Shown here: in pieces, positions 1,720-37,510 of the stretch | How the letters are laid out: each line of letters starts with the position of its first letter | How positions within the stretch are numbered: position 1 is the stretch's first letter | Source of the DNA: a virus | Taxonomy: Duplodnaviria > Caudoviricetes | Length of the DNA: 64,000 bases | Virus record (IMG/VR): IMGVR_UViG_3300012952_003952 | Location: 1 to 64,000 of that record | Strand: one strand, 5' to 3' | Made by a program: the position numbers and the translations under genes | Notes under the pieces: model-generated | Databases searched by the model: none | The model's input: only the letters and a program-made list of their open reading frames with translations | Told to the model about the DNA's origin: nothing

Positions 1720-1839
1720 CTTAGTCTCCAGTAACTAAGTATTCACCTGAACCCAGATCTTGAACGAAATTCAAGCCACATTCGAGTGCAACACAAACTA
1801 GAAACTATAGGAGTAACACGCACATCCACAACACTCGCA

Positions 1840-2144
1840 TACAGTACAGCGTATAAGCCTACAGCTAAGACACGCGTTGACCCTGATCACCCTGTCTCTG
1901 TGTACTCAGTATGTCTACCTTTCCCAGTCCTTCAAAATACCCTCAGCTCCGTCGATTGAGGTCAAAATGTATATGGCTGACAGAATAATTGGTGCCCTTA
2001 GCCCAGCGGTCGCAAGAGTGGAAACGGATTTTCTTGTATCGTCGGGGCAAAACCGTGTGAAATCTAGAAGTGCTCTGCCTTAGCTCCCCTACGCGTATGG
2101 GATGCCTCACTACGCCTCTATCGTTACCCTGCTGTATTACTGTA
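1840..2144 (-). ncRNA. Candidate ~305-nt structured non-coding RNA
   Basis: Terminal inverted repeat 1840-1850/2131-2144, inner pairings 1863-1869/2079-2085 and 1877-1882/1960-1965, an upstream minus-strand promoter, and no ORF with an RBS. Confidence 0.35.
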
Positions 2145-2178
2145 ACCAATTAATGTATCATTATAATATTATTATTTA

Positions 2179-2208
2179 ATTATAACAAATAGCCCAAGAT
2201 TGTATCAA
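2179..2208 (-). promoter_or_regulatory. Sigma70-type promoter (TTGATA, 18 bp, TATAAT with extended TG)
   Basis: Minus strand reads TTGATA caatcttgggctatttgt TATAAT. Confidence 0.6.
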
Positions 2209-2229
2209 GTAAAAAGTATCATCAGCTTC

Positions 2230-2528
2230 GCTGAGATTTAGTTTCACGTGATCTACTCGCGTTTTTTTATTGTACATTCTCCCCGAGCATTTTAGATTTT
2301 AATAGGAGGAAAATTTATTTGATGTCCACTCAAAAATATATCTTAACGGCTCAAGAGACTATCGAGGGCAAAATTAACGACGCTCAAAGCCAACTCGCTC
2401 AGGCGATCAGGAGTGACGACTCCAGCATGATTCGCCATTGGGAAGCTTACATTCGTATGGCAGAGCTGCACTTGAAAGATTTAGCCGGTGTCCCTGGCCA
2501 GAGCTGAGATTAAATTTAGCGTGATCTA
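2230..2528 (+). repeat. Two copies of a 26-bp motif (2230-2255 and 2503-2528) upstream of consecutive genes
   Basis: gctgagatttagtttcacgtgatcta vs gctgagattaaatttagcgtgatcta: 22/26 identical, with an AGAT...ATCT dyad. Confidence 0.7.
2322..2507 (+). CDS. Small helical hypothetical protein
   Basis: AGGAGG upstream; 61 aa. Confidence 0.7.
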   Translation: MSTQKYILTAQETIEGKINDAQSQLAQAIRSDDSSMIRHWEAYIRMAELHLKDLAGVPGQS

Positions 2529-2624: not shown

Positions 2625-2852
2625 ATGTCTTACACTAACTCAAAGTCCACCAAGCGTTTCAGCTTTGGTATCAGCCGTAACCAGACCGCCAAGCAGGCCG
2701 GTTCCAATATCGTCACTATCGCTACTCTTCCAGCCGAAGACAGCCAGTACAGCGTTGGCCAGACCGCTCTCACCATGACGGTTCGCGAAGCACGCGCTCT
2801 TCAGAGCTTCCTTAACTCGGAGCTTGTAGACGAGTCCGACGTTTCTGTCTGA
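2625..2852 (+). CDS. Small hypothetical protein (MSYTNSKSTKRF...)
   Basis: AGGAG RBS before the ATG at 2625; followed by a terminator. Confidence 0.75.
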   Translation: MSYTNSKSTKRFSFGISRNQTAKQAGSNIVTIATLPAEDSQYSVGQTALTMTVREARALQSFLNSELVDESDVSV

Positions 2853-4397: not shown

Positions 4398-4443
4398 TTC
4401 TGTAAAAAAGACACCTATTTATGGTATAATATTACTATAAGGT
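4398..4443 (+). promoter_or_regulatory. Conserved 46-bp promoter element, copy 2
   Basis: Same consensus and length as copy 1. Confidence 0.8.
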
Positions 4444-4499
4444 GGAAGGAATAAGGACAACCCACCAATCGTTAACCCCAACTCCCCGGAGTCTCTCAC

Positions 4500-6028: not shown

Positions 6029-6051
6029 ATTAACCAAAAAATATATGTTGA

Positions 6052-6097
6052 TTCTGTAAAATTCTCCACTATTTATGGTATAATAGTACTATAAGGT
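6052..6097 (+). promoter_or_regulatory. Conserved 46-bp promoter element, copy 3
   Basis: Same consensus and length as copies 1 and 2. Confidence 0.8.
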
Positions 6098-6110
6098 AAG
6101 GAGCTAATCA

Positions 6111-7741: not shown

Positions 7742-7759
7742 TATTCTGCTATCTGTATA

Positions 7760-8030
7760 GGGGCCAGTATGGGGGCCCACTGATGGGGCCTATTTTCACC
7801 CCCTATTGGGGCCCCCGAGAAGGCCCCCATTTTTGCCTTTTTAGGCCCCATCTGAGGCCCCTCTGCGGCTCAATCGGGCTTTCTGTCGGGGTGGTTGCCT
7901 AAGGTCGTGTATTTTTTTTCCAGAAAATTTTTTGAAACCAAAAGGCCTTTTTTCTCAGCGCGGTTAAAAATAGAAAATGCTTAGAAACCAAAAATTTTTC
8001 CCGAGAAAATCTGAGGCTAAATGGGTATAG
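7760..8030. other. Non-coding element: phased GGCC boxes followed by A/T tracts
   Basis: GGCC cores at 7762, 7774, 7787, 7810, 7822, 7844 and 7856; poly-A/T tracts 7910-8010. Confidence 0.6.
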
Positions 8031-19339: not shown

Positions 19340-20071
19340 GACTTCCCAGCTATATAAAAATTCAGATAATTCTTCGTGCGTAGAAGCTATTCCTATGTTA
19401 TCATTATCCATGAGAGCAGAGTGGATTACTCCAATGATTTCAAATTCTTTGTTTAACACTGCGGCACCTGAACTTCCGCTCTGCGTTGGGATAGTGTATA
19501 TATCATCTTTGCCGTAAAAAGTGTTTGCGATACCGGAATACAAACCTTCAAACACCGGTACAGCTCCAGGATACAAAAACCCTCCTGGCGCTGCGATAGC
19601 GTAAGCTTTTTCTCCAATAAGTGGAGGTTCAATAGATAGGTTTACTGGTTCTGTCCAAATTTCAGGAATTCTTAAAATGCACAGATCTTTATCTATGTCG
19701 TTAAAAACAACAATTGCTTCTCTTGAATACCCATTAAAGTCAACTATTCCATTTTCTATTATTACTTCATCATCATGATATGCTTCTAATATTTGTCTGT
19801 AGAATGGCGGAGTGCAAACATGATTTGCTGTTAAAACGTAGCTATTAGAATCGTCAACATAAAAAACTATTCCAGATCCCACTGCGCTAACGCTATTTAA
19901 TTCGCCGTCGGAATTCAAAATTATGTCAGTTTCTATTTGGGCAAATGCGTCAACTGGTAAGTAGACTGGGTCGTGTTTTTTCAACCCTCTGATTTCTTGT
20001 CCATGAATCCATATTATTCCTGTCATCATGCAGAGCATGGTAAAAAATAGGAAACGGTATAGAGACTTCAT
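19316..20071 (-). CDS. Trypsin-like serine protease with N-terminal signal/anchor
   Basis: Catalytic triad contexts LTANHVC, DKDLCIL and GSSGAAV; GSGIV. Confidence 0.9.
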   Translation of the reverse strand: MKSLYRFLFFTMLCMMTGIIWIHGQEIRGLKKHDPVYLPVDAFAQIETDIILNSDGELNSVSAVGSGIVFYVDDSNSYVLTANHVCTPPFYRQILEAYHDDEVIIENGIVDFNGYSREAIVVFNDIDKDLCILRIPEIWTEPVNLSIEPPLIGEKAYAIAAPGGFLYPGAVPVFEGLYSGIANTFYGKDDIYTIPTQSGSSGAAVLNKEFEIIGVIHSALMDNDNIGIASTHEELSEFLYSWEVLFGFRVH

Positions 20072-20101
20072 AAAATTAAGTATCTGTTTTAAAATAAAAA
20101 T

Positions 20102-22102
20102 TTAAGTATTCGTAATATCATATTCCCAGACGCAAGTCACGTTGACATTTCCGTGCGCGTTTGTTGGGTCTATGCTTACGCCGATTACGTCTCCTGGTCC
20201 AAAGTGAGTGACATTGGAAAAGGAAAAGGTATAAGTCGTATTCTGCTGAGTCATATTAACTGTCTCTGTTTCTTCTGCGGTAGAATTTATAACAGTGTTG
20301 CCATCTACATTTGCATGAATACCAACTGTGGTAGATCCCAGGCCTCCAGACTTACTTGATCTTAGTAATACTTTCGATAGCTTACCCTCGTAAGGCGCAA
20401 TGCCCTGCGTAATCCAACTAGGGCTTGGTTGCTCAGATGTCCCGGCCCAAGGGATATACTCTTTTCCCGTTCCTGATCCATCATTGTATCGGTGATGAGT
20501 CATATGCAGCATTCTACCATAGATGTTTCCGTTAACTGTCATGCTTTGGTTTTCATCTATTGTGACCGCTGTAGATGGTGAGGTAGCACTTGTTTGAGTG
20601 GTCCTTATTACTACTTTTGTCGGATGAGAGGTTGTACTAATAGCTCCAGCTGCTTGTGCATAAATGTCAGCAAAGTTATCGTAGCTGTTTCCATCATAAC
20701 CCAACATTCTAATCTGACCAACGAAGTCGCTGTTTTGAACTGCCGTCGGACTCGCACCTGAACCTCTTGATTTTGAGAGATCTAATTGAGATGCATCAGA
20801 AGAATCATCTGACTGGCTGATAGTCACCGCACCGTCGTTAATAGAGTCAGCATGAACGTGTAGCGTGACTTGGGGTGTTGAGGTTCCAATACCAACTTTC
20901 CCAGACCCAGTAACATACAACATGTGCGTGTTATTATCGCTTTCAACGCGAAAGTTGATCAACGATTCTGAACCTTCGTTTACCACAACTTCTGGAACGG
21001 TTCCACCTAACCTGAGCCCTTCCCGGACGACTCCTGCATCGTTTGATTTGAACACGATAAACTTATTTGTAGATTGATTTGTTATGACCAAGTTGTCAGA
21101 GTCATTAATTCCGATCTCAGCACGATCAGCATCGCTTTCACGAAAAGTAAGTTTAGGCTCAGTCCCGTTAATTGTTAGATCTGAACTAGGTGATTCTGTT
21201 CCAATTCCCACTCTACTAGTATCTGCATCTGTCATTAGAAGAGTGGCGCCACTGTTATCTTCGACGACAAAATCTATATTGTTACCGCCATCGTTAATAG
21301 TAACTTCATGCGGGGCAGATGCTTTTTCCTCCATTGTAACCATTGCAATGTTACCTGCCTTGAGGACTATCTTATCTTCAGTAAAGTTGATGTGCGTGTT
21401 AGTATCGCCCATGTGTCTAATGTACTGGCTAACTTCTATTTCTCCGTCTACTGATAGATTGGTACCGTTTAATAACTGAAGTTCTTCTGATTTAAGCCTT
21501 GCAGTTATAGTTTGTGATCCGGCTTTGACATTGGCAAATTCTAGAATACCATCTTCAGTTCCGTCAGAAGCATCGTCAATTTTTCCAGTTATCTTCACGT
21601 ACACAACTTCTTGATCAGCATCATTTTCCCCGAGAAACTTAATCTGGCCAAGGTAGTCTGCGTCTGCTGGAGAAGAGCTGTTTCTTTTGAGTGTAAATAC
21701 TGGGTTAGCAGTATCTCCCGCATCGGTTGCTTCTAATGTAAAAACAGGATTAGCGCTTGTGGCTGTAACCTTAAAAGTAGTATCATCCCACGTCAGGTTC
21801 GAACTAGCTCCAAAGTTTGAGCCGCCATCATTAAATTGAATCTCTGTATCCGACCCAGCCGGAGAACCACCGCCACCACCGCCGACTCCTAAGTTTCCAG
21901 GAGAGACTTGTTTTAAAGCAGAATCAGTAGCATCCCATATTAGAAGCCTGTCGTTAGTGGTATCAGTTGATGTTATCAAAGTTTGCCCAGAGATAGCTTC
22001 AGCGTTTAACTCGCCGGCCTTGATTGATCCAGAAGCTAAATCTGCAGAAGCAACTGTTTCGTCTCGGATTCCTTCGCCTGTTATAGTAGTTTTTCTTGAC
22101 AT
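20102..22102 (-). CDS. Tail-fibre/adhesin-like virion protein (666 aa)
   Basis: GSDTEIQFNDG and repeated GKVGIGTSTP/RVGIGTESP beta-repeats; poly-Gly linker; Ser/Thr-rich. Confidence 0.7.
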   Translation of the reverse strand: MSRKTTITGEGIRDETVASADLASGSIKAGELNAEAISGQTLITSTDTTNDRLLIWDATDSALKQVSPGNLGVGGGGGGSPAGSDTEIQFNDGGSNFGASSNLTWDDTTFKVTATSANPVFTLEATDAGDTANPVFTLKRNSSSPADADYLGQIKFLGENDADQEVVYVKITGKIDDASDGTEDGILEFANVKAGSQTITARLKSEELQLLNGTNLSVDGEIEVSQYIRHMGDTNTHINFTEDKIVLKAGNIAMVTMEEKASAPHEVTINDGGNNIDFVVEDNSGATLLMTDADTSRVGIGTESPSSDLTINGTEPKLTFRESDADRAEIGINDSDNLVITNQSTNKFIVFKSNDAGVVREGLRLGGTVPEVVVNEGSESLINFRVESDNNTHMLYVTGSGKVGIGTSTPQVTLHVHADSINDGAVTISQSDDSSDASQLDLSKSRGSGASPTAVQNSDFVGQIRMLGYDGNSYDNFADIYAQAAGAISTTSHPTKVVIRTTQTSATSPSTAVTIDENQSMTVNGNIYGRMLHMTHHRYNDGSGTGKEYIPWAGTSEQPSPSWITQGIAPYEGKLSKVLLRSSKSGGLGSTTVGIHANVDGNTVINSTAEETETVNMTQQNTTYTFSFSNVTHFGPGDVIGVSIDPTNAHGNVNVTCVWEYDITNT

Positions 22103-22165
22103 TTGTACTCCAATTCTCTATTAAGTATTTGTGAAAAACTGTTATACTTTGGATAAAATATATGC

Positions 22166-23785
22166 ATGGATACTTTACAATTTGAAAAATACTTTCCACA
22201 CCCTCAAATTAGAGACGCTCAAGAAGAAGCAATAAATTTTGTTATAAACGCATTTTCTTCTGGTAAAAAGTACGTAATACTAGAAGCAGGTACAGGCGTC
22301 GGCAAGAGCGCTATTGGAATCGCTGTTTCTAGATACCTTTCAAACGAAGTAGATGTAGAAGACTCTTATAAGTGCGGAGGGTTATTTTTAACAACCCAAA
22401 AAATTCTTCAAGATCAATACATAAAAGATTATGCCGGGTCCAGTGGCTTAATGGAGACTATTAAATCGTCTTCAAATTATTCTTGCAAATATATGAGAAA
22501 CAGTACATGTGCAGAAGGTTTAAGAGCGCTTAAAGCCGCAGATAAAAAGTCTCAATTTTTTAAGACATGTGCGTTTAGGTGTACCTATAAAAAAGCAAAA
22601 GAGAAATTCGTTGGGAGTAGTTATGGAATCACTAATTTTTCTTACTTTCTTGCAGAGACTCAATATGTTGGTAAAATCAAACCTCATCAACTTCTTGTAG
22701 TAGACGAAGCGCATAATTCAGAATTAGAGCTAAGCAAGTTTATTGAAATTGGAATTTCGAAACGATTCTGCGAGCGCGTGTTAAAAATCAATATGGCAGA
22801 TTTTTCTAACCAAAAACAAGCTATTAACTGGGTAGAACAAGTTTATGAACCGCGGTTGTCTAATCACTTAAAGCATGTAGAAAAAATGCTAGAAAAATAT
22901 GTAGGCTTAAAAGAAAAAATTAAAGAATTCGCTAATATTGCTAATAAGTTTGAAATGTTAGATAAGCATGCATGTAAACTTCGCAGATTTTTATCTCATT
23001 ACTCTGAAGAAAATTGGGTTTTCAATTACGAAAAAGAAGGAGATAGGGCACGTTTAGAGTTTAAACCAGTAGACATTTCAGAATTTGCGCAAGAATATCT
23101 TTTAAAATATGGAAAGCAGGTTCTCATGATGTCTGCAACAATATTAAATAAAGACGCTTTTTGTGAATTACTGGGTATCAAAAAAGAAGAAGCTGCTTTT
23201 ATTTCTATTCCTTCACCTTTCTCAAAAGACAATCGGCCGATTATTGTAAGCCCTATCGGAAAGATGAGCTCTAGCTCTATCGATCAAACTTTACCAAAAT
23301 TAGCAAAAGCTATAGAACAAATAATAGACAATCACAGTGATGAAAAAGGAATAATTCATTGTCATTCTTATAAAATAGCTCGCTATCTAAAAAATAATAT
23401 TAATTCTAAAAGATTTTTAATTCACGATTCTTCAAATAGGGATATGATTCTTGAGAAGCACATAAAATCTAAAAAGCCGACAATACTATTAAGTCCTTCT
23501 ATGACAGAAGGAGTAGACCTTAAAGGCGAGATGAGCAGATTTCAAGTCTTGTGTAAGGTTCCATACCCATATTTGGGAGATAAGCTAGTAAAAAAGAAAA
23601 TGAATAAATGGCGATGGTGGTATCCAATGCAGACCGCAAAAACAATAGTTCAATCTGTTGGCAGAAGTATTAGGAATCAAGATGATTTTGCTGTTACTTA
23701 TATTTTAGACGCTGACTGGAATAATTTTTATAAAAGAAACTCTGCATATATGCCTGCAGATTTCACATCTTGCATTCTACAATAG
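22166..23785 (+). CDS. DinG/Rad3-like SF2 helicase
   Basis: EAGTGVGKS, VVDEAHN, MMSAT, SMTEGVDL, QSVGRSIR; Cys cluster consistent with an Fe-S site. Confidence 0.9.
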   Translation: MDTLQFEKYFPHPQIRDAQEEAINFVINAFSSGKKYVILEAGTGVGKSAIGIAVSRYLSNEVDVEDSYKCGGLFLTTQKILQDQYIKDYAGSSGLMETIKSSSNYSCKYMRNSTCAEGLRALKAADKKSQFFKTCAFRCTYKKAKEKFVGSSYGITNFSYFLAETQYVGKIKPHQLLVVDEAHNSELELSKFIEIGISKRFCERVLKINMADFSNQKQAINWVEQVYEPRLSNHLKHVEKMLEKYVGLKEKIKEFANIANKFEMLDKHACKLRRFLSHYSEENWVFNYEKEGDRARLEFKPVDISEFAQEYLLKYGKQVLMMSATILNKDAFCELLGIKKEEAAFISIPSPFSKDNRPIIVSPIGKMSSSSIDQTLPKLAKAIEQIIDNHSDEKGIIHCHSYKIARYLKNNINSKRFLIHDSSNRDMILEKHIKSKKPTILLSPSMTEGVDLKGEMSRFQVLCKVPYPYLGDKLVKKKMNKWRWWYPMQTAKTIVQSVGRSIRNQDDFAVTYILDADWNNFYKRNSAYMPADFTSCILQ

Positions 23786-23793
23786 GAAAAATA

Positions 23794-24324
23794 ATGCCTG
23801 GATTAATCTACAAAAACATACATGAATTAAAAAAAGAGCTAGATAACTGGGGATATTCTAGCTTTACTATATCAGGTGGATTTGATCCCATTCATATCGG
23901 TCACATAAGATATATAACCGCTGCTGCTGAAAAAGCGCAAGTAGGAGAACCGTCTTCAAGTTTTTGGAACCCAGGTGTTTTAGTAGTTATAGTTAATAGT
24001 GACGGCTTTTTAAAAAGAAAAAAAGGATATTCCTTTATGCCAATAGAAGAACGAATGGAGATCATAGCTTCTGTAGAGGGCGTAGACTTTGTCACGACTT
24101 GGGATGATGGCACTCAAACAGTCTGTGGAGCTTTAGAAATATTAAAACCTAATTTTTTCCTAAAGGGCGGAGATAGATGTGATCCTGAAAGTGTACCTGA
24201 GTACGAAACTTGCGATAAAATAGGTTGTGAAGTGATGTTCGATATTGGCGGCAAAGAAAAAGCGCAGAGCTCTTCTGAGCTAGTAAGACAATATGAAAAC
24301 ATCAGAATCAAAAATCAAAAATAA
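23794..24324 (+). CDS. HIGH-family cytidylyl/adenylyltransferase (TagD/RibL/RfaE2-like)
   Basis: SGGFDPIHIGH, KGGDR and SSSELV. Confidence 0.85.
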   Translation: MPGLIYKNIHELKKELDNWGYSSFTISGGFDPIHIGHIRYITAAAEKAQVGEPSSSFWNPGVLVVIVNSDGFLKRKKGYSFMPIEERMEIIASVEGVDFVTTWDDGTQTVCGALEILKPNFFLKGGDRCDPESVPEYETCDKIGCEVMFDIGGKEKAQSSSELVRQYENIRIKNQK

Positions 24325-24892
24325 GAAAACTTTAATTTTATTAAGAGAATTTATAAGGCTTCTAGAAAAAGAAGGGCAAGATATAGATTCAGTTAATATA
24401 TTATCTCAATATGCTCACAAGGATCAAAAAAGAAGAACTGGTGAGCCATATTTTTTACACCCTCAAGAAGTTTCTCTTATTGTAAAGAAGTACTATCCCT
24501 CTAATCAAATTGCTTACTATTCAGCATTACTTCATGACGCGCTGGAAGATTCTATTGACCAAGGGAACTTTGAAGATGAAGATGAGCTGTTAGCCTTTAT
24601 AATGGATTCTGTAGACGATGATGAAACAGGATCTAGAATTATAGAAGTAGTTAGCGTTTTAACTAAAACTAAAAATACACCATACGAATCTTATATGTCT
24701 GGTGTAATTATGGACCAAGACGCTCTTATCGTGAAGCTAGCAGATATGCTGCATAACCTCTCAGATAATCCTTCTGACAGACAAATGGTTAAATATGGAA
24801 AAGCTGTTCGAAGTATCTCAGATCAATTTCAGGGAAAACCAAGTTTCATAAATGGCGGTCACTGGAATGAGTTACTGGCAGCTATAAAATAA
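24293..24892 (+). CDS. HD-domain protein, RelA/SpoT hydrolase-like (small alarmone hydrolase/Mesh1-like)
   Basis: AHKDQKRRTGEPYFLHP, ALLHDALED and VKLADMLHNL. Confidence 0.85.
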   Translation: MKTSESKIKNKKTLILLREFIRLLEKEGQDIDSVNILSQYAHKDQKRRTGEPYFLHPQEVSLIVKKYYPSNQIAYYSALLHDALEDSIDQGNFEDEDELLAFIMDSVDDDETGSRIIEVVSVLTKTKNTPYESYMSGVIMDQDALIVKLADMLHNLSDNPSDRQMVKYGKAVRSISDQFQGKPSFINGGHWNELLAAIK

Positions 24893-24952
24893 AAAGTGTC
24901 CCTGAAGATAAATTAAGTTTATTTCTAACGAAAAATTGACATAATTAAAGGT

Positions 24953-26140
24953 ATGTCGGTATTCAAACATCATAAGTCTTCTGGAGATCGATCTGCTTCT
25001 GATAGATCTAGACATAAGAAGAAAATAGAAAAAGCTATCAAAGAAGGCATTCATAATATTGTTGCCGAAGAATCTATAATTGGGCAAGACGGCAAAAAGA
25101 AGTTTAAAATACCTGTTAGAGGAATCAAAGAGTACAGGTTTGTCTACGGAAATAACTCAAACAAAAAAGTTGGATCTGCACCTGGTAAAAATGTTAGAAA
25201 GGGACAGACCATTGGAGAAAATCAAAAAAAGAAGCAAGGGAAAGGTAATGGAAAGCCTGGCAATGAAAAAGGCGAAGAATACTATGAAGTAGAAATTTCT
25301 CTTGAAGAGTTAGCATCTTATCTTTTCGACAGCTTGCAGCTACCAGAACTAGAAAAGAAGCAGATGCAAAAACTGTTTTTTGAAAAACCCAAGAGGCACG
25401 GTTATAGAAACAAAGGCATTAGACCTCGTTTAGATAAAAAAGAAACTGTAAAGAGAAAGCTCCGTAGAAAAAATATGTCCAAGAGACATAAAGATCCAGA
25501 AGTTATCGAAGAAAATGACGAATTTGCTTTTAATGAAAGAGACTTAAGATATAAACATATTAAACAAAAGCTTAAGCAACACTCTAATGCGGTTATATTT
25601 TTCCTTATGGATATATCAGGATCGATGACTGATAATAAAAAATATCTCGCTAGAAGTTTTTTCTTCTTGTTATATCACTTTGTGAGATCTAAATATGAAA
25701 ATACAGAATTGGTTTTCGTAGCTCACGACGTACAAGCTTATGAGTGCGGAGAAGACCAATTTTTTAAACGTGGGTCTGGTGGTGGAACCATGGTATCTTC
25801 AGGCACTGAAATGATACTAGAGATTATAAATAAAAGATTCCACCCCGACGCTTGGAATATCTATTTGTTTCAGTGCTCCGATGGCGACAACTGGCCGAGC
25901 GATAATGAAAAGCTGTCTGACCACATCATAAAACTTATATCTTTAGTTCAACTATATGGCTATTGCGAAATAGTGCCGAGCGACGATAGACTTCGCTGGG
26001 CTGATGATAGTAAGGGGCTTGGAGCAATGGTGTTTAGACCACTAAGCGGCTGGAATCTAAAAGTTGCCGATATAGGAAACCCAGAAGATATTTGGCCAGC
26101 GTTTAAAGCATTTTTCGGTGGGAGAGGTACAGATGTCTGA
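24953..26140 (+). CDS. yeaH: YeaH/YhbH (DUF444) family protein
   Basis: DRSRHKKKIEKAIK, FNERDLRYK, FFLMDISGSM, SGGGTMVSSG and SDGDNW. Confidence 0.9.
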   Translation: MSVFKHHKSSGDRSASDRSRHKKKIEKAIKEGIHNIVAEESIIGQDGKKKFKIPVRGIKEYRFVYGNNSNKKVGSAPGKNVRKGQTIGENQKKKQGKGNGKPGNEKGEEYYEVEISLEELASYLFDSLQLPELEKKQMQKLFFEKPKRHGYRNKGIRPRLDKKETVKRKLRRKNMSKRHKDPEVIEENDEFAFNERDLRYKHIKQKLKQHSNAVIFFLMDISGSMTDNKKYLARSFFFLLYHFVRSKYENTELVFVAHDVQAYECGEDQFFKRGSGGGTMVSSGTEMILEIINKRFHPDAWNIYLFQCSDGDNWPSDNEKLSDHIIKLISLVQLYGYCEIVPSDDRLRWADDSKGLGAMVFRPLSGWNLKVADIGNPEDIWPAFKAFFGGRGTDV

Positions 26141-27446
26141 TTGGTCTCTTAAAGATTTAGAAAAATGGGATGAGAAAATATGCGAGATTGCAAGATCGCA
26201 TGGTCTAGATTGGTTTCCAATAGTTTACGAAACATGCGACTATTATGAAATGATCGGCCACATGTCATATCATGGTATGCCTTCTCACTACAATCATTGG
26301 TCTTATGGAAAGAGTTTTGAAAGAACTCACCAGATGTATAACCTTGGAATGGAAGGATTGCCGTACGAACTTATTATTAATTCTAATCCTTCTATTTCTT
26401 ACTTGATGAGAGAAAATCCATTTTATCTGCAGATTCTTATTATGGCCCACTGTGTCGGCCATTCCGACTTTTTTAAAAATAACCGGACGTTCGAACTAAC
26501 CAATCCAGAAAACATAGTTTCATCTTTAAGAAATGCTAAGAAGAGAATTCAATCTTACATAGAAGATCCAAGTATTGGAATAGAAGATGTTGAAAGGGTT
26601 ATTGACGCTGCTCACACACTACAATTTCAAACCTATCGCTATCCGAAAAAATATGTTTCTAACAAAAAGAAAAAAGAAGAGCTTAAGATATTCTTGAAGT
26701 CACAAAGTGAAGCCGGCAAGAAGGTCGACTTTTCAGTGCTAGATAATACCCCACTTAAACCAGAATATGATATACTTGGTTTTTTACTAGAGCACGCAGA
26801 AAATTTAGAAGAATGGGAAAGAGATATATTAGAAATAGTAAAATTAGAATCTAACTATTTTTTGCCCCAGATCAAGACTAAGATAATGAATGAGGGTTGG
26901 GCTAGCTACTGGCATTACACGATACTGCATGAATTAGACTTACCACAAAAATTTCATATACCATTTTTAAAAAGTCACAACCAAGTAATTAGGCCGCATA
27001 TTGGAGCAATCAATCCGTATCACTTAGGGTTTGAAATGTTTCAGAAAATAAAAGAGAGACAAGGAATAGAAGAATGTTTTCTTGCGAGAGAAGTTCATCA
27101 TGATGAATCTTTCATAAGACAATATTTAACAGAAGAAGACTGTCGTGATTTAAATTTATTTTCTTATGCTCAGTTTAATGATAAAATTAAAATAACTGAA
27201 GTGTCTGATGTAGAGGGCTGGAAAATAGTTAGAAAAGATTTAATAAAAAGAACAGGAACTAACAGCATACCAGTAGTGTATGTAGACTCAGTAGACATAG
27301 GCAACGTATTAGTCTTGCATCATGAGCATGATGGAAGAGATTTAGAAATCGATCATGCAGAAAAAGTAGTAGATCATATTAGTGTTTTATGGAAAAATCC
27401 AGTAAAACTGTTAACAATAATAGAAGATGAACCGTTTGAGATTTAA
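26133..27446 (+). CDS. spoVR: SpoVR/YcgB family protein
   Basis: GMPSHYNHWSYGK, LPYELIINSNP, MAHCVGHSDFFKNN, YFLPQIKTKIMNEGWASYWH and NPYHLG. Confidence 0.93.
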   Translation: MSDWSLKDLEKWDEKICEIARSHGLDWFPIVYETCDYYEMIGHMSYHGMPSHYNHWSYGKSFERTHQMYNLGMEGLPYELIINSNPSISYLMRENPFYLQILIMAHCVGHSDFFKNNRTFELTNPENIVSSLRNAKKRIQSYIEDPSIGIEDVERVIDAAHTLQFQTYRYPKKYVSNKKKKEELKIFLKSQSEAGKKVDFSVLDNTPLKPEYDILGFLLEHAENLEEWERDILEIVKLESNYFLPQIKTKIMNEGWASYWHYTILHELDLPQKFHIPFLKSHNQVIRPHIGAINPYHLGFEMFQKIKERQGIEECFLAREVHHDESFIRQYLTEEDCRDLNLFSYAQFNDKIKITEVSDVEGWKIVRKDLIKRTGTNSIPVVYVDSVDIGNVLVLHHEHDGRDLEIDHAEKVVDHISVLWKNPVKLLTIIEDEPFEI

Positions 27447-27460
27447 AGTAAGAGGGTACC

Positions 27461-29401
27461 ATGGCGAAAAATAAAGATAAAGATTTTCTTAAGTTAATCG
27501 AAACTCAGAGAAGTGCTAAAAAAGAAGAACGTTTTAATGGAACTTTTTTAGAGTATCTAGAATTAGTAGAAAAGAATCCCAATATTGTAGACCACGCACA
27601 CAAAAAGCTGTGCGATACAATAGAGAGCTTTGGTGTTCATGTTCTTTCTGATGAAGATCCTAGAAAGAGAAAGATTTTCGACGGTGAAAATATAAAAATT
27701 TATGATTACTTTGCCAGTGAATTTTTTGGAATGGAAAAAGTTCTTTCGAAGTTGATGCGTTTCTTAAAATCAGCCGCGTTGAAAGGCGAAGAAAGTAGAC
27801 AAGTGCTGCTTTTAATGGGTCCGGTTGGAGCTGGTAAATCTGCACTAACTGAACACATAAAAAGCGCTATGGAACATGCTCCAGATTTTTATCATCTTGC
27901 TAGTGACCCTCAAAGAGGAGAGCCCTTACAGTTGGTGCCAAGATCTTTACGCTCTAAATTTGAAGAGCTTTTAGACGTTAAGATTGATGGTGATATCAGC
28001 CCAGTTGCAAGATACAAGCTTCTAGAAGAACATGGGGGTAAATATGAACAGTTCCCCGTAGTTCAATCTTCTTACTCACAAAGAGGTCGGAGGGGAATTG
28101 CTTCTGTTCCACCAATGGATGCGAACTCACAAGATGTATCAGTGCTTATCGGCTCAGAAGATATTTCTAAACTAGACAAATACTCTGAAGATGATCCAAG
28201 AATATTATCACTTAATGGTGCATTCAATGTTGGGAACAGAGGAATTGTAGAGTTAGTAGAGGTCTTCAAGAATGAAATTGAATTCTTACATACGATTATT
28301 ACTGCAACGCAAGAAAAGAGAGTTCCAGCGCCAGGTAAACACGACATGCTCCATTTCGATGGAGTTATTCTTGCACACTGCAACGAAGCCGAGTGGAATA
28401 GATTTAGATCCGAACATACAAACGAAGCTATCTTAGATAGAATTGTTAAGATTAATGTTCCATACGTCTTAGAGCTCAATAAAGAAATTAAGATTTACGA
28501 GAAGATTCTCGGAAGATCAGACTTTAAAGCACACTTAGCGCCACATACAATTAGAATTGCTTCAATGTTTTCTATTATGTCTCGCCTTAAACCATCTCAA
28601 AAATGTGACTTGATTACAAAGATGAAAATATACAATGGTGAAGAAGTTATTGAGAAGGGCAGAGTTAAAAAAATAGATATCAGAGATCTAAGAGAAGAAT
28701 CTAGAAACGAAGGAATGAAAGGAATTTCTACTCGATTCATAATGAAGTGCATCGATGCTGCTCTTACTGACTCAGATTCAGATTATATTACACCTATATC
28801 AGTTATAGAGTCTATCAAAAAGCAAGTTAACGAGCAGCTTATAGATGAAGACTTTAGAGAAAGATGCCAAGAAATAATCAGCGGAATAGTAAGAGAAGAG
28901 TATCTTAAGATTTTAGAAAACGAAATAGCAAAAGCTTTTGTCAATGCTTACGAAGAACAAGCTCAGGCTTTATTTGACACTTATCTAGATAATGCAGAAG
29001 CACATACGACTAGAGCAAAAATAAAAGATCGTATAACAAAAGAAGAAAGAGAGCCAGACGAACAATTTATGAGAGCTATAGAAGAGCAAATTGGAATTAC
29101 TGGATCTTCTCGTGATGGGTTTAGATCAGACGTAACGGCATACATGTTTGCGAAAATGAGGAGAGGGGAAAAAGTAAACTACACCTCTTACGAACCTCTA
29201 AAAGAAGCCATTGAAAGCTATCTCATAGCTTCAGTAAAAGACATGGCCAGGATTGTTACTAAGTCTAAAACAAGAGATGACGAACAGCAGAAAAAATACG
29301 GCGATATGATTAACACAATGGTAGAAGAATATGGATATACTCCTGATTCTGCAGAAGAAGTTTTAACTTACGCTAGTAACAATCTGTGGCGAGATAGCTG
29401 A
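27461..29401 (+). CDS. prkA: PrkA/YeaG family serine kinase / AAA+ ATPase
   Basis: FFGMEKV, LLLMGPVGAGKS, GAFNVGNRGIVELVEVFK, AHCNEAEW and GISTRF. Confidence 0.93.
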   Translation: MAKNKDKDFLKLIETQRSAKKEERFNGTFLEYLELVEKNPNIVDHAHKKLCDTIESFGVHVLSDEDPRKRKIFDGENIKIYDYFASEFFGMEKVLSKLMRFLKSAALKGEESRQVLLLMGPVGAGKSALTEHIKSAMEHAPDFYHLASDPQRGEPLQLVPRSLRSKFEELLDVKIDGDISPVARYKLLEEHGGKYEQFPVVQSSYSQRGRRGIASVPPMDANSQDVSVLIGSEDISKLDKYSEDDPRILSLNGAFNVGNRGIVELVEVFKNEIEFLHTIITATQEKRVPAPGKHDMLHFDGVILAHCNEAEWNRFRSEHTNEAILDRIVKINVPYVLELNKEIKIYEKILGRSDFKAHLAPHTIRIASMFSIMSRLKPSQKCDLITKMKIYNGEEVIEKGRVKKIDIRDLREESRNEGMKGISTRFIMKCIDAALTDSDSDYITPISVIESIKKQVNEQLIDEDFRERCQEIISGIVREEYLKILENEIAKAFVNAYEEQAQALFDTYLDNAEAHTTRAKIKDRITKEEREPDEQFMRAIEEQIGITGSSRDGFRSDVTAYMFAKMRRGEKVNYTSYEPLKEAIESYLIASVKDMARIVTKSKTRDDEQQKKYGDMINTMVEEYGYTPDSAEEVLTYASNNLWRDS

Positions 29402-29445
29402 TGTACATCTGATATCTCTTGATTATCTTTAAAAGAGAGGTGTTT

Positions 29446-29712
29446 ATGAACAACAAAATAACATTCGGCATGCCTGAAATATTTGTTTGCGGCAGTTTCT
29501 TTATGTTGGTTAGTGGATTAGTTTGGCAAGGATGGGCATTTTTAGCCTTAGGCTTATTTGGTTCATTTCTAAGATTCAGTCTAGAATTTCAAAAAGCCAA
29601 AGCTATTCAAGATAAGCAAAAAGAAGTCATTGACAATGTTGAAGATCTTGGTCGTCAATTTATAGATATGGCAACTATGTTCGGAAATAAAAATAATGGA
29701 AAAATGCACTGA
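29446..29712 (+). CDS. Small membrane protein
   Basis: GAGGTG RBS; hydrophobic N-terminal half. Confidence 0.7.
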   Translation: MNNKITFGMPEIFVCGSFFMLVSGLVWQGWAFLALGLFGSFLRFSLEFQKAKAIQDKQKEVIDNVEDLGRQFIDMATMFGNKNNGKMH

Positions 29713-31039
29713 TCCTTATCTGGTAAGATCAATAAGCAATATCCTTTCTGTTTCTAAAAAAGACATTAAAGACTTAGCAGTAAAGACTAAAAACTTATCT
29801 AAGGGTAAGGTGGAATTTTTTTTAGAAGATATTCCTGCTAAAAGTTTGTGGATAGATGGTCTAAGGCTACTAGTTGAAAGCGATCTTGAAAAAGATGGAA
29901 AGATATTAAAAGACTGTATTCTAGAGGGGTTTTGCTCTGTAGAGCACGCGTATTCAGGATCAGGATACTTTTATTTACTCGCAGTGTTGCAAGGTCTTTT
30001 ATATGATACAGATGAATTAGAGTCTTTAAAACAACTTGGCAGAATTACAGCAAGAGCCAACACCGAGCAGCTTCAAGAAAGCTTAAACATAGAAGGCCCC
30101 TTCATTAATAAGTTCGTAGATTTCTGTATAAATAAAGCAGGGTTTTCTTCTTCATTTTCAGTAAAAGAAACCAGCGCTTTCAATTCTAAGTTTTTAATTT
30201 CTTCTTCTTATAATTTTCCAATTGTTGCACTACCAGAATTTTTATACAGCGTAAACCTTCAGTCTATATCTTCTTTTGACTCAAGAGTAGTTGTTTATGA
30301 CGGTGTAATTGAAACCGTCGGTGAAATTCATCATATGCTAACTTATTTTTCTGAAAATAATATAGAATTATTTTTAGTAGCTAGAGGCTTTAGCAATGAT
30401 GTAATCAATACTTTAGCAGTAAACTATAAAAGAAAAAGCTTGAGAATAGTCCCTGCGAAATTAAATTTTTCTATAGAGAGCATAAACACTTTAAAAGATT
30501 TTTCTGTTGCTTGTGGGTCTCCATTAATAAATGGCTTATCAGGCGAAACTTTATCAAGCTATGATTTTTCTAAATTAGAAACAGTTCATCATATAGAGTT
30601 TAATAGAAACAACTGTAACGTAAGAAATCCAAAGACACATAAAAATGTTTCTGTGCTCTTGAAACATATCAATAAAAAAATTTACGAAACTAACGTAGAA
30701 GAGAAAAAAGACATACTTCAAACCAGAAGTAATTGTCTAAGAGGAAGAAAAACAACCATTTATTTAGGCTCACATTTGCGTAGTTCTAGAGGCATTACTA
30801 AAGATAGGCTATTGACCCTAATTGGAATAATGAATACGATAAGCAGGCATGGAATAATTAATTTAAAAGATGTTGGAGACACAAATTTGAAAAATACTAA
30901 GATGATTGTAAATTTTTTGCAGAGTATTGATTTTAGTTCTGTGCCTGCTTCGTCGTTTATACATGGCGTTTTAAATGGTTTTAAAACTGCAAGTCAAATA
31001 AAAAATGGAAGTTACGCGCTTTTATTGGATGATAAATGA
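29696..31039 (+). CDS. Divergent GroEL/Cpn60-like protein
   Basis: Apical-domain-like segment LFLVARGFSNDVINTLAVNYKRKSLRIVPAK, plus LKDFSVACG; GDGTTT is not conserved. Confidence 0.65.
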   Translation: MEKCTDPYLVRSISNILSVSKKDIKDLAVKTKNLSKGKVEFFLEDIPAKSLWIDGLRLLVESDLEKDGKILKDCILEGFCSVEHAYSGSGYFYLLAVLQGLLYDTDELESLKQLGRITARANTEQLQESLNIEGPFINKFVDFCINKAGFSSSFSVKETSAFNSKFLISSSYNFPIVALPEFLYSVNLQSISSFDSRVVVYDGVIETVGEIHHMLTYFSENNIELFLVARGFSNDVINTLAVNYKRKSLRIVPAKLNFSIESINTLKDFSVACGSPLINGLSGETLSSYDFSKLETVHHIEFNRNNCNVRNPKTHKNVSVLLKHINKKIYETNVEEKKDILQTRSNCLRGRKTTIYLGSHLRSSRGITKDRLLTLIGIMNTISRHGIINLKDVGDTNLKNTKMIVNFLQSIDFSSVPASSFIHGVLNGFKTASQIKNGSYALLLDDK

Positions 31040-31515
31040 TAATTCCAAAACAGGCTAACTGGTTTTCTGGTAGCGGAAACCCATACACACTATCTCAAGT
31101 ATACGATGAAGTTATCAACTCAGGACCAGATACAGAAATTCATGTAGGTACTGACTCTGATCCTGGAGCTCATAGAATAGCTTTTGTTACTGGAATAGTA
31201 ATAAGAACACCTGGCAACGGTGCAAATTATTTTTGGTGCCGTAGATATGTAGACTCAAAAGTATTTTTTAATTTAGGCCATCGGCTAGAAGTAGAAATCG
31301 GAGATTCTATAATAGTGGCAGACCTCTTAAGAAAGAATACTGGAAGAGAAGAAATAACAATACACGCAGATTGCAGCAGCGATCCTAAAAATGCTAGTTT
31401 TGAATTTTTAAGTAGAATAACTAGCTATGCAAAAGGAATGGGGTTTAAAACAATTGCTAAGCCAGATAGTTGGGCTGCAAGTTCTGTTGCCGACAAACAC
31501 GCGAAGGCTATATAG
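31036..31515 (+). CDS. RNase H-like YkuK (DUF458) family protein
   Basis: IHVGTDS, EIGDSI, ITIHAD and KPDSWAASSVADK. Confidence 0.8.
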   Translation: MIIPKQANWFSGSGNPYTLSQVYDEVINSGPDTEIHVGTDSDPGAHRIAFVTGIVIRTPGNGANYFWCRRYVDSKVFFNLGHRLEVEIGDSIIVADLLRKNTGREEITIHADCSSDPKNASFEFLSRITSYAKGMGFKTIAKPDSWAASSVADKHAKAI

Positions 31516-31557
31516 TTTACCTCTTTGACTGTATGAATACATTAGATCTAGGAGGGT

Positions 31558-31824
31558 ATGAACATGCCAAGAGCAAGAAAATCTACCACTGTTACAGTCC
31601 AAGAAGATACTTCGCCTAAGATTACAGAAGGTCAAATCGGAAGGTTAGCTAGAGACATATTAGATCTACACGGGCAACAATTAAAAGAAGAATTAGTTTC
31701 AAATTCTTCTCACTATAGCTTGAATAATGATCAAGTCAAAGAAGTTTGTAAAGCCATAGATGCAATGACCACTAAGTCTAAAGATGCTGCTTTAAGACAA
31801 GTAATTTCTACTTTTAAATCTTAA
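31558..31824 (+). CDS. Hypothetical protein
   Basis: AGGAGG RBS. Confidence 0.75.
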   Translation: MNMPRARKSTTVTVQEDTSPKITEGQIGRLARDILDLHGQQLKEELVSNSSHYSLNNDQVKEVCKAIDAMTTKSKDAALRQVISTFKS

Positions 31825-31825
31825 A

Positions 31826-32281
31826 ATGTACGGGATTAGGCACTTAATAAGCTGTAGGTGTATATTGCCTCAGTTTAAAAAAATCAGTAATCCCGTATTT
31901 CATAAATTTGTTGTATTTTCTGTTGTAGATGATGAAGATAAAGTCAAAGAATCTTATGCACAGTGTAATAATTGTGGAATTATCCATAAAGTTACAGACA
32001 TGTGCAAGTCGACTATTGTGAAAGGAAAAGAGCAGCTAGCTAGTATACCGAATCTTTCAGATATTAAGTTAGAAATTCCTGAATCGTTATCAGATTTACT
32101 TACATCTTACAACGCGGACATAACCGTTTGGCAGCATGCGCAATTTATTTTGCGGCATCAAAAATGGGGGACTAAGATTATAATTCAGAGAGAAGAAAAT
32201 GAAGAAGATGTTAGCGGTAAAATACTAATATTCGTGGGTCCTCGCCAGTTTAGAATGGAAAGTTTTCAAGAGAGCAGATAA
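31826..32281 (+). CDS. Hypothetical protein, possible Zn-binding
   Basis: Motifs HLISCRC and QCNNCGIIH...C. Confidence 0.75.
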   Translation: MYGIRHLISCRCILPQFKKISNPVFHKFVVFSVVDDEDKVKESYAQCNNCGIIHKVTDMCKSTIVKGKEQLASIPNLSDIKLEIPESLSDLLTSYNADITVWQHAQFILRHQKWGTKIIIQREENEEDVSGKILIFVGPRQFRMESFQESR

Positions 32282-32520
32282 TGAAAAATAAAATATATGG
32301 ATCAACACCAGAAGAACAGAAGCTAGAATCAGCAATAGAAGCTAGAGAGATCTCTCAAACCATTATGCAGCACGGAGTTACCCAATATCAAATTGCAAAA
32401 ATAATATATTTACTATCTCTCGAGCTAGAGGATAGAAATGTTCTTTCTGATGTATCTAAGGCAATAATGCCTTTACTAAACGAAGAAAATAATAAAGATT
32501 CTAATATCATCATTTCTTAA
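32281..32520 (+). CDS. Hypothetical protein
   Basis: TAATG coupling. Confidence 0.7.
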   Translation: MKNKIYGSTPEEQKLESAIEAREISQTIMQHGVTQYQIAKIIYLLSLELEDRNVLSDVSKAIMPLLNEENNKDSNIIIS

Positions 32521-32531
32521 AGGAGAAGAAG

Positions 32532-32729
32532 ATGGCTAATAACGAAATTTTAGAAAAGTGGAGAGAGCTTAAAGTCTTAGTGGAAAGTCTAGAATTAGAT
32601 GTACACAAACACGCTAACGGTAATTCTTCTGCTGGTGTAAGAGCTAGAAGAGGGTTAAGACTACTAAAAGGCGAGACGGCAAGTTTGGTTAAACTTTCTT
32701 TATCACACGAGAAAGAAAAGAAATCTTGA
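32532..32729 (+). CDS. Histone H1-like Hc1-family nucleoid protein
   Basis: GNSSAGVRARRGL matches the Hc1 core GNKAAGxRARK; AAGGAG RBS. Confidence 0.75.
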   Translation: MANNEILEKWRELKVLVESLELDVHKHANGNSSAGVRARRGLRLLKGETASLVKLSLSHEKEKKS

Positions 32730-32739
32730 CTTATTCTTA

Positions 32740-33108
32740 GGGCCCGAAACGGCTTCGACGGGGTAGGAGAGAACGAGAGTGCAGGTGGTCACACGAAATA
32801 GCGGACCTTAAACGCGGTTTCAAAACTTTAATTGCCAATAACAATTATCACTTCGAATCTGCCCGCTTAGCGGCTTAATCGGTGGGGTTGCTTAAGACCT
32901 TATTACCCAATTTAAGATAGCAGGTAGAGATCCTGCGAAATAAAAAAATCAGAACGGTTTCCTGGAAACAGGCGGGGCGCAACAGGTTGATAAGCGCAGG
33001 GTTAATCAACTACCTTTTCTAATTTGTGATAGTAAATTAGACAAACCTGTGAATGACTTGACTTTGAAGCTATTGCGGACGCGGGTTCGACTCCCGCCGG
33101 GTCCACCA
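32740..33108 (+). ncRNA. ssrA: tmRNA (369 nt)
   Basis: Acceptor stem GGGCCCG/CGGGTCC with G3-U pair and ACCA end; GCTTCGAC at the 5' end; T-arm GCGGGTTCGACTCCCGC; tag ORF 32834-32878 encodes ANNNYHFESARLAA. Confidence 0.96.
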
Positions 33109-33142
33109 TTTATAAAATGTGAAAATATGCTACAATAGAATT

Positions 33143-33865
33143 ATGATTCCAAACCTTCCTAGAAAACAAGTGCAGCTTTTAAGCTTTTTGTTATTTGCAG
33201 CTGGAGCGCTTGTTATTATTGCCGGCGGGTGGCAGAACGAAGCTGCCCGGTCTGTAGGGATAACGCTGATGGCGGGATCTATATGGTTTATCATGATGGC
33301 TGAGTCTGTTCTTCTTGGGAAGGTCCAGACAGAAATGACTCGTGCGCTAGAATCATTTAGAAAGAAGCAAGAAGTTGAAATTCAAGACCTCCTCTATTTT
33401 CTTAGGCAATCTCGAATAGCAGCGTCACCACTCGAATCTATAGACGGAGCCAAAAAACTGTGTAGCACTATCCATTATCCGGCGATGGTTTTAACAATAA
33501 GCCATCAAATCATTAAAGCTAATGAAAAAATGCACAATCTCGTCGGGTGGGGTGAGGGCGAATTAAATGGAAAACCAGCCCATTTCATTAACGATCTAGT
33601 TGTAATGTCGAAGATTGGTGAGCGTTGCGCAATGCCTGAGCATGTAGACAAAAAAGCTATGATAACTCAATATGTTTACGTACACAGATCTGGAAAAAAA
33701 ATATTCGGCCAGATGGATGCAGCAAAAATTGGTGATGACGGATACTTTGTCGTGTTCCACCCTTCGAAAGACTGTGTTATTTCTTATGATGAAATTAGAA
33801 AAATGTCAATGCAAAAAGAAAACGACACTTATGATTCTGCCATAGCGGAATTTAAAAAATTATGA
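33143..33865 (+). CDS. Membrane-anchored PAS-domain protein
   Basis: Two transmembrane helices, then IIKANEKMHNLVGWGEGELNGK...YVHRSGKKIF. Confidence 0.75.
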   Translation: MIPNLPRKQVQLLSFLLFAAGALVIIAGGWQNEAARSVGITLMAGSIWFIMMAESVLLGKVQTEMTRALESFRKKQEVEIQDLLYFLRQSRIAASPLESIDGAKKLCSTIHYPAMVLTISHQIIKANEKMHNLVGWGEGELNGKPAHFINDLVVMSKIGERCAMPEHVDKKAMITQYVYVHRSGKKIFGQMDAAKIGDDGYFVVFHPSKDCVISYDEIRKMSMQKENDTYDSAIAEFKKL

Positions 33866-33868
33866 TAG

Positions 33869-34120
33869 ATGGAAGACTATAATAAAGAAGACCGAATTAT
33901 GATAGCCGCTGTAGCTTCTGCAGTGGCTAGGGCTATACTCTATATTGGTTTATGTATTACTTTAGGCATATTACTTTCTAAGTGTTCAGTTAACTCTGAG
34001 ACCATTGTTCAGTGTGAAGAATCATGTGGGACAGATGGTATAAAAGAAGTTACTTCTTGGAGTTGTAAGTGTGGAGACAAAGAAGCAATGTCTGAGTCTC
34101 CTTGGGTATTGCCCAGGTAG
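33869..34120 (+). CDS. Small membrane protein with Cys-rich tail
   Basis: Transmembrane segment, then CEESCG...SCKC. Confidence 0.7.
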   Translation: MEDYNKEDRIMIAAVASAVARAILYIGLCITLGILLSKCSVNSETIVQCEESCGTDGIKEVTSWSCKCGDKEAMSESPWVLPR

Positions 34121-34250
34121 CCAATAATTTATCTTTCTTATATTTAAACATAGAAAAGTGCATAATTAAGGGTGGAATGTGGCCTCTCGAACAAATAATC
34201 TCTTCGGAAGAGAGACTAAAAAAGAAAAAAAGAAAAAGAAGGATGTGACT

Positions 34251-35354: not shown

Positions 35355-35355
35355 A

Positions 35356-35547
35356 ATGAAGATAAGATTTATAGAAGCTTTAAAAGCTAAAATGTCTACT
35401 AATGTTATAGAAGTCGAGTTAGAAGAAGAAGAGGAAATCACTGACGAAATCATAAAATCTTTGTATGAATTAAAAAATGCTTATGATTTGCCTACTGAAG
35501 AAGTAGAATATGCGGTGGCTTCTAGAAATATAAAGACTCACAATTGA
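35356..35547 (+). CDS. Small acidic hypothetical protein
   Basis: ATG 2 nt after the tubulin-like stop. Confidence 0.6.
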   Translation: MKIRFIEALKAKMSTNVIEVELEEEEEITDEIIKSLYELKNAYDLPTEEVEYAVASRNIKTHN

Positions 35548-35789
35548 TTTAAAATAGAAAGATTTTTTAGTTTTTGAAATATAGATTTTTCTATTTGGCA
35601 GATTCTCATTCTTGTCACGCTAAAAATATCTCCAATCTCTTGGAGAGTATGCGGACCTTTTTTAGACGCTATTATGGTACAATTTTGATTCTCTTTAGAC
35701 GCTATCCAGTATTTGCAGGATGACTTCTTACAATTAAAAATGTGTCTTTCACATTCTTCAAAGCATATTTTATTTTTATTTTCTGGCAT
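35538..35789 (-). CDS. Sigma70 region-4 HTH protein with Cys-rich N-terminus
   Basis: HTLQEIGDIFSVTRMRICQIEKSIFQKL. Confidence 0.8.
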   Translation of the reverse strand: MPENKNKICFEECERHIFNCKKSSCKYWIASKENQNCTIIASKKGPHTLQEIGDIFSVTRMRICQIEKSIFQKLKNLSILNQL

Positions 35790-35865
35790 TCATGAATTCC
35801 CTAGTGTCATATTTATATTAACAAACATAATAACGGGTTTGAAATATGTACAGAGGAAATATTAT

Positions 35866-37161: not shown

Positions 37162-37192
37162 ATGTAATAGTTATTAACTGGGAAATAAATAA

Positions 37193-37510
37193 ATGGCCAG
37201 AATCATAAATAAAAATCAACGTCGCAAAGTCTATCCTAGAGTTAGAAAAAGGCCGGTGTATGAAGATTGTGGTGGTGGTGGTGTTGATGTAGAAACTGCT
37301 ATTTTAACTTTTGCTGGAGAGAGTTCTGTAACTTATAGTTTCGTAAAAAGCTACCCCACATATTATCCAGCCGTTACGGTTGTTGCGGCAGGCAGTGACA
37401 ACAACATCAATTTATTTATTTCAAGTATCGATACAACTACAGTCACAATAAGTGCTAGCCAGCCATTTCATGGTACTGCACACTTGGTCGCTGTAGAGAG
37501 GTCAATATGA
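37193..37510 (+). CDS. Small beta-rich probable virion protein
   Basis: Paralogous to the next ORF (FAGESS, PxVxxxA, NLxxSS, VTIxAS..FxG..HL). Confidence 0.65.
   Translation: MARIINKNQRRKVYPRVRKRPVYEDCGGGGVDVETAILTFAGESSVTYSFVKSYPTYYPAVTVVAAGSDNNINLFISSIDTTTVTISASQPFHGTAHLVAVERSI

Follow-up and report, generated by a model that had tools for sequence, protein, structure and literature searches.

RNA II of the ColE1/pMB1 plasmids is an untranslated primer transcript of several hundred nucleotides, with hairpins towards its 5′ end and stretches rich in G that make a lasting hybrid likelier. To our knowledge, replication origins have been mapped for few large phages. In phage T4, oriF and oriG each combine a promoter with an unwinding element that forms a priming R-loop; oriE has an early promoter and direct repeats, the role of which is itself unproven; and strand switches are found close to three of the T4 origins (PMC3016281). 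In the literature we searched, we found no origin described for uncultured marine T4-like giant phages that encode DnaE. Our subject is a locus in just such a phage. Positions 1760-2255 form a real, conserved, protein-free unit, bigger than first stated. Its parts are an upstream motif, TGWWACA heptamers arranged in an array, minus-strand promoters of the sigma70 type and a ~385-nt body (Table 1). We read it, tentatively and at somewhat less than an even chance, as a transcription-primed (R-loop) replication origin in the manner of T4 oriE/oriF or ColE1. An RNA-primed origin would supply a 500-bp unit of defined extent, together with candidates for a repeat-binding site and for a helper protein; a free RNA would represent a phage ncRNA family new to Rfam.

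The window, by which we mean the whole stretch of DNA analysed, covers the opening 64 kb of a virus contig (G000) that is 241,978 bp long and was found in marine metagenomes. It belongs to a marine giant phage that is T4-like, with a gp32-like SSB and 5′-3′ exonucleases. The element sits in a 603-nt gap between a methyltransferase-like gene and a 61-aa gene. No other gap in the contig is as large, and the site is among its few divergence points, ~96% of the genome lying on one strand. A gp32-like SSB, a DnaB-like helicase, RecA, DnaE and two 5′-3′ exonucleases are encoded elsewhere in the genome. A complete relative of 293 kb, G006, is collinear with G000 and has ~55 kb that G000 lacks, so position 1 of the window is not a genome end and we rejected a reading of the element as a genome terminus. 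Many contigs do terminate inside the element, ends for which shared mosaic blocks account equally well. Upstream of the element in G006 (20,001-39,000; L060) are ~19 kb of small genes, many beginning MKVGDLV, that are absent from G000.

Table 1. Features of the element and its neighbours (window coordinates)
Feature	Position	Strand	Remarks
Methyltransferase-like gene, 209 aa	1090-1719	-	Downstream neighbour in clade 1 only; weak Methyltransf_25 match, E=0.08
Late-type promoter motif (ATACTTA) belonging to the downstream gene	1736-1742	-	Marks the element end; kept in relatives
Conserved non-coding body, ~385 nt, putative transcript	1760-2145	-	~410 nt if started from the upstream promoter at ~2172
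Hairpin H7, 3′ boundary	1765-1784	-	1784-1780 pairs with 1769-1765
Purine/G-rich stretch, high predicted RNA:DNA hybrid advantage	1870-1960	-	Second stretch at 2140-2080
Candidate enclosing helix, tentative	1886-1989	-	1989-1979 with 1896-1886; in the MFE fold of the window segment, though z=-0.2
Hairpin H2	1941-1961	-	1961-1957 pairs with 1945-1941; 11-nt loop
Hairpin H1	2046-2079	-	2079-2072 pairs with 2053-2046; loop of 18-21 nt, variable
TGWWACA heptamer array, iteron- or operator-like, AT-rich zone	2133-2221	.	Overlaps the promoter in all variants
Extended -10-like site TGATACATT	2152-2160	-	+1 predicted at ~2143-2145; doubles as a heptamer copy; putative function
Sigma70-type promoter: -35 TTGATA, 18 nt, TG, TATAAT (extended -10)	2179-2208	-	Promoter scan, 11/12 matches
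Conserved upstream motif with small inverted repeat	2222-2253	.	Second copy at 2503-2528
61-aa gene, clade-1-specific, divergent	2322-2507	+	No function assigned
75-aa protein with a predicted Pur-alpha/PC4-like fold (four strands followed by a helix)	2625-2852	+	Constant divergent neighbour in both clades

The unit is kept non-coding in 14 variants, which form two clades with different downstream genes. Clade 1 holds eight full and two partial variants gathered through their neighbouring proteins; clade 2 holds four distinct variants (L064, L111, L112/L114 and L119). Conservation in clade 1 runs from 2255 down to ~1760, 80 nt past the end at 1840 given in the preliminary description, whose ~305-nt length gives way to a body of ~385 nt. 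It is a mosaic of invariant blocks and swapped segments, and in two variants (L034 and L050) the 3′ half has been exchanged for a longer, unrelated sequence of similar composition. Against G006 the body is 69% identical in its 5′ half and 88% at its 3′ end; three flanking genes are 54-62% identical and the 75-aa gene 77%. In clade 2 a gap of 710-730 nt lies ahead of the same gene (75-80 aa), the motifs come in the same order, the downstream genes are convergent, and the AAA protein of L064 is 63% identical. The clades are only 28-44% identical to each other, yet short invariant words keep their spacing with almost no indels over 190 nt. Synteny, motif order and borderline profile matches (E 0.04-0.2) suggest that the two are homologous.

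The element is single-copy in the complete G006, and a search of G000 for a paralogue returned none. G002, which is 87% complete, gave no match, and the structured covariance model R2 also came back empty in G002, G007 and G008. At 11 loci reached through the 75-aa gene the element is absent nearby; the PUR-like gene is present without it in many relatives. Pattern matches at L001-L005, L036-L040 and L042, and gapped-pattern matches at L085-L109, showed no homology beyond the pattern. Single pattern scans of genome contigs, of viral sequences and of metagenome sequences were each empty, and BLASTN against cultured phages gave short chance matches only. A cmscan-type search of Rfam, suggested by the preliminary description, yielded no relevant match for the window or five relatives, at gathering or at permissive E-value thresholds. 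Judged by sequence comparison, then, the element is a conserved non-coding unit in no RNA catalogue that we searched.

Does the body encode anything? It has stops in all six frames in every variant, with indels of 1-2 nt, and our search across the variants for a conserved open frame found none; the earlier statement that no good ORF is present stands. It is very improbable that the region is a small protein gene, or that it serves the methyltransferase-like gene as a riboswitch or other long 5′ leader. The window does carry 68-codon ORFs on both strands, and in clade 1 the body is co-oriented with 1090-1719, but the broken frames speak against a gene, and the methyltransferase-like gene has a late promoter of its own, of the ATAYTTA type that stands before many genes of G000. 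Moreover, an 84-aa gene stands between the two in L019 and L030, and in clade 2 the next gene is a convergent ligase or 92-aa gene. Since the downstream gene changes between clades we exclude a 5′ leader, and we regard the pair of proposals as largely refuted. Being non-coding, under selection, equipped with a minus-strand promoter and without an Rfam family, the region is likely to yield an untranslated RNA.

The preliminary description had pointed to the extended promoter at 2179-2208; it is present, and in about six to seven of the ten clade-1 variants there is a degenerate equivalent at the same place, the exact site being only partly conserved and the match weak or absent in L019 and L030. 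The TGATACATT site is steadier, standing 67-69 nt ahead of the anchor motif in nine of the ten. Clade 2 has a conserved TTGTAM-17-TATAAT, its spacer varying in sequence and fixed in length, and a second, weaker promoter further down. As for RNA itself, run X14 contains two 151-nt contigs inside the body (1772-1922 and 1991-2141) and none on the flanking genes. They may derive from one fragment, or from DNA, and the run was chosen using this sequence, so we take them as a weak hint only; runs X2, X5 and X13 gave low-depth pieces only. Promoter conservation and the two read-length X14 contigs together indicate that the unit is probably transcribed from the minus strand.

The main rival to an origin is a trans-acting phage ncRNA of ~385-500 nt, one of modest local structure serving as sponge, scaffold or regulator, with the heptamers as operators for its own promoter and the divergent early promoters. 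We consider this possible, though on the doubtful side. In its favour are the clade-2 promoters, conserved around variable 17-nt spacers, the X14 contigs confined to the body, and a sharp 3′ boundary marked by H7 and, in clade 2, adjoining a convergent gene. No intrinsic terminator was called at that 3′ end, however; the X14 signal carries the doubts just described; and a free RNA sits awkwardly with the exchange of the whole 3′ half in L034 and L050.

The window has two exact copies of TGWWACA and six with at most one mismatch, a degenerate set by comparison with relatives, which have four to eight exact copies. The array is nonetheless the densest such 100 nt in G000 and the sole cluster in the complete 293-kb G006; its members are unevenly spaced and run in both orientations. 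In the clade-2 array (L064:4050-4090 and equivalents) two heptamers read TGTA-N8-TACA, a spacing not kept in clade 1 and one that we take to resemble the cyanobacterial NtcA box. The two copies of the upstream motif bracket the 61-aa gene, each closely preceding a plus-strand promoter. Two distant phages, L065 and L066, retain the motif and repeats without the body, a related motif bracketing the repeat array in the first and preceding one in the second.

The zone 2200-2140 lies within the weakest 0.1% of the genome's duplex windows, and the array zone is among the weakest 4.2% or less in nine of the ten clade-1 variants; in clade 2 the weakest duplex reaches merely the 9-27 percentile. This weak zone overlaps the promoter and start. 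The body downstream is GC-richer (~45% against 39% for the genome) but hybrid-prone: its two purine/G-rich stretches fall at the 0.2-1.1 percentile of the genome's 60-nt windows for RNA:DNA hybrid advantage, by nearest-neighbour estimates that largely reflect purine richness. In every variant, L034 and L050 included, the best hybrid window falls in one of these two stretches, at 0.9% or less. G-C skew is +0.2 to +0.4 in the third quarter in most variants.

Might the DNA alone be what is selected? The blocks would then be protein sites in an origin, regulatory or packaging hub, hairpins would form in single-stranded DNA like primase-loading signals, and transcription would be incidental. Fixed spacing among short invariant blocks is what such a hub would show, as are the weak promoter match in L019 and L030, the coincidence of extended -10-like sites with heptamer copies, and the persistence of motif and array without the body in L065 and L066. 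A DNA-only element is, however, hard to square with clade-2 hexamers and spacer length that are kept while the spacer sequence varies, or with H1, which depends on several G.U pairs and is better suited to RNA. We think it distinctly unlikely.

The preliminary description proposed a large ncRNA of no known class with nested, pseudoknotted long-range pairing. Its motifs are all present where it placed them, and the non-coding, selected, promoter-borne and Rfam-less character of the region holds; most of the fold is not supported. The window sequence by itself gives eight Watson-Crick helices of at least 6 bp, against 6.9 ± 2.7 in shuffles (p=0.40), a number within chance. Homologues keep just 3-6 of the 7 pairs of the AGCTAAG/CTTAGCT helix and 2-4 of the 6 of the ACGCGT pseudoknot, uncompensated in each case. 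The TTGACC/GGTCAA pairing fares better, with five of six pairs in six relatives, but five of them have an A.A mismatch, there is no covariation, and the window's T is the odd variant. The complementary ends (ACAGT/ACTGT) give an invariant 5-6 bp in six variants and lose their register in L034 and L050. Folding energies point the same way: region 1830-2170 has an MFE z of +1.75, and the longer body, set against 25 shuffles, one of +5.6, which makes the sequence under-structured. Sliding RNAalifold z over the body was not significant in either clade after allowing for multiple windows, and a systematic helix scan of the homologues found no excess of compensated helices. On this evidence, within the limited power that 14 mosaic variants give to covariation, we rejected an ornate large RNA.

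What remains is a handful of local hairpins. RNAalifold on six clade-1 sequences draws ~14 helices, among them three that are well-supported: H1, H2 and H7. Within clade 1, 97% of the H1 cells are paired, and changes in H1 and H2 are one-sided only, no better than a shuffle control; in H1, H2 and a small upstream hairpin alike we found no two-sided pair change, which counts against a trans-acting RNA, as does the want of a stable global fold. H2 is degenerate in L034 and L050, and the window taken alone prefers, by MFE, an alternative local hairpin to H7. Clade 2 was seen after the hairpins had been predicted. There H1 keeps six of six pairs through G.U/G-C swaps and loses one whole pair, H2 keeps five of five, an A-U pair having become U-A while the loop length stayed constant, and H7 keeps four of five by way of A-U, G.U and G-C. 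Altogether 15 of 16 pairs survive 8-9 substitutions; random placement keeps 15 with p 0.003-0.006 at 50% transitions (43-45% are observed) and at most 0.025 at 70%. Because we placed the registers by hand and selected the three helices from a larger number, we rate the hairpin evidence as moderate. The G.U pairs identify the minus strand as the one that folds, and survival of all three hairpins through G.U or compensatory changes workable on that strand only is a further point for a trans-acting RNA. A pairing like that of the enclosing helix can be drawn elsewhere with register shifts read by eye, and in clade 2 an 8-bp helix surrounds H2. In an out-of-sample test the syntenic L064 segment was the top match of model R2 (E=0.21) and was missed by a sequence-only model, but the match did not use the modelled helices and so carries no information on structure. 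The element's RNA is probably only loosely structured, with a few local hairpins absent from the preliminary description.

Nor is it the ornate RNase P-like RNA first suggested. Bacterial RNase P RNA is of similar length, and end-to-end pairing is possible in six variants. GGCTTAT does precede the 3′ closing strand, but in the window only; it varies among the relatives. The GAGGAAAGUCC element of CR-I and its CR-V partner, which form P4, are missing from the window along with the other catalytic-core motifs, and the Rfam RNase P models went unmatched even at permissive thresholds in the window and five relatives. A divergent RNase P RNA, or another catalogued class, is therefore scarcely credible and, so far as sequence alone can decide, refuted. 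With the GOLLD, ROOL and OLE RNAs the element shares being large, non-coding and phage-borne; they are densely structured, whereas the element does no better than shuffles and has few covarying pairs (10.1101/2024.12.08.627333). The window and five relatives were unmatched by the Rfam models for GOLLD, ROOL, OLE and raiA.

A heptamer array, an easily melted zone, hybrid-prone stretches and a PUR/PC4-like neighbour lead us to favour a cis-acting origin transcript over an ornate trans-acting RNA. We observe conservation, non-coding status, the array, promoter motifs, a hairpin pattern and a computed hybrid bias, and the origin that we infer would work as follows. A sigma70-type promoter within the AT-rich array would fire leftwards to give an untranslated RNA of ~385-410 nt that folds into a few local hairpins. 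Purine/G-rich stretches of this RNA would remain hybridised to the template as an R-loop; its trimmed 3′ end would prime the phage polymerase, and the displaced strand would admit the helicase. The heptamers would serve as sites for an initiator or a regulator, and the Pur-alpha/PC4-like protein encoded next to the unit might keep hold of the melted strand.

The model of that protein (pLDDT 72.7) has a strand/helix topology that fits a PC4/PUR-like fold, with Pur-alpha and PC4 proteins both among its top structural matches. The top Foldseek rows are Pur-alpha at a probability of ~0.9 but with E 0.06 or weaker, below a firm threshold, and the VIA score (Z 5.6-5.8, rmsd 3.0-3.7 over 57-66 residues) is middling and likewise below a firm threshold. 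Domains of the Pur-alpha/PC4 type are ssDNA binders that are also able to unwind duplex DNA (PMC7549692). The 75-aa protein occurs widely among related jumbo phages; it matches no PHROG, and Pfam only weakly. Possibly, though we hold it unlikely, it works with an undescribed class of phage RNA of ~400-500 nt, either as a primer RNA module dedicated to that task in jumbo phages that encode DnaE or as a ribonucleoprotein that acts in trans.

How far does the likeness to T4 go? As at oriF(uvsY), oriG and oriE, a promoter, recognised here at the level of motifs, fires into a region suited to hybrid formation; as at oriE, short repeats accompany a sigma70/early-type promoter. The setting, a T4-like phage with a gp32-like SSB and 5′-3′ exonucleases, is shared, and so is a position at a transcription divergence, although the element has no genome-scale skew flip. 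We found no sequence similarity to the T4 origins, however, and the element is ~500 nt against ~100 bp. The T4 unwinding element lies downstream, whereas the AT-rich zone here is at the promoter; the element's body has conserved hairpins; and the polymerase is DnaE rather than gp43. The element and ColE1 RNA II have in common an untranslated transcript, putative here, of several hundred nucleotides that bears hairpins towards its 5′ end and has G-rich stretches. The element differs in matching neither the RNA II nor the RNA I families in Rfam or by sequence, in having no identified equivalent of antisense RNA I and no single G-tract/C-tract pair, in folding far more weakly, and in carrying a heptamer array. 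Homology being absent and the defining activity putative, we do not file the unit as a member of the T4 origins or of ColE1.

Several observations weigh against an origin. Neither in the complete G006 nor in G000 does fourfold-site GC or AT skew flip at the element, which gives no sign of a single bidirectional origin. The melted zone is at or upstream of the start, a leftward primer would oppose most transcription, and more distant phages either have the motif and repeats but no body, or have no such unit. There is also a rival candidate in the window for an origin or a terminus signal, the conserved, palindrome-rich region at 7750-8010.

In region 7750-8010, palindromes of the GGGGCCCC type are clustered and long A/T tracts come after them; the region is 83% conserved in G006. 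It marks the step from a GC-richer early region to the rest of the genome and is a candidate terminus, packaging or origin signal. An early-promoter cassette ending GGTATAAT is repeated at 2940-2990, 4400-4450 and 6050-6100, with similar copies at several G006 sites. A tmRNA with the tag ANNNYHFESARLAA lies at 32740-33108, and G006 has a near-identical tag. Finally, an ORF-free stretch near tRNA genes at the contig end (L062:5590-5978; G000 241,590-241,978), which is outside the window, looks a stronger candidate for a large structured RNA than the element at 1760-2255. Its G000 part has no Rfam match. The stretch corresponds to at least 700 nt in G006 (~277,800-278,500), identity is 84% across the contig's final 839 nt, a small gene included, and compensatory changes are apparent by eye.
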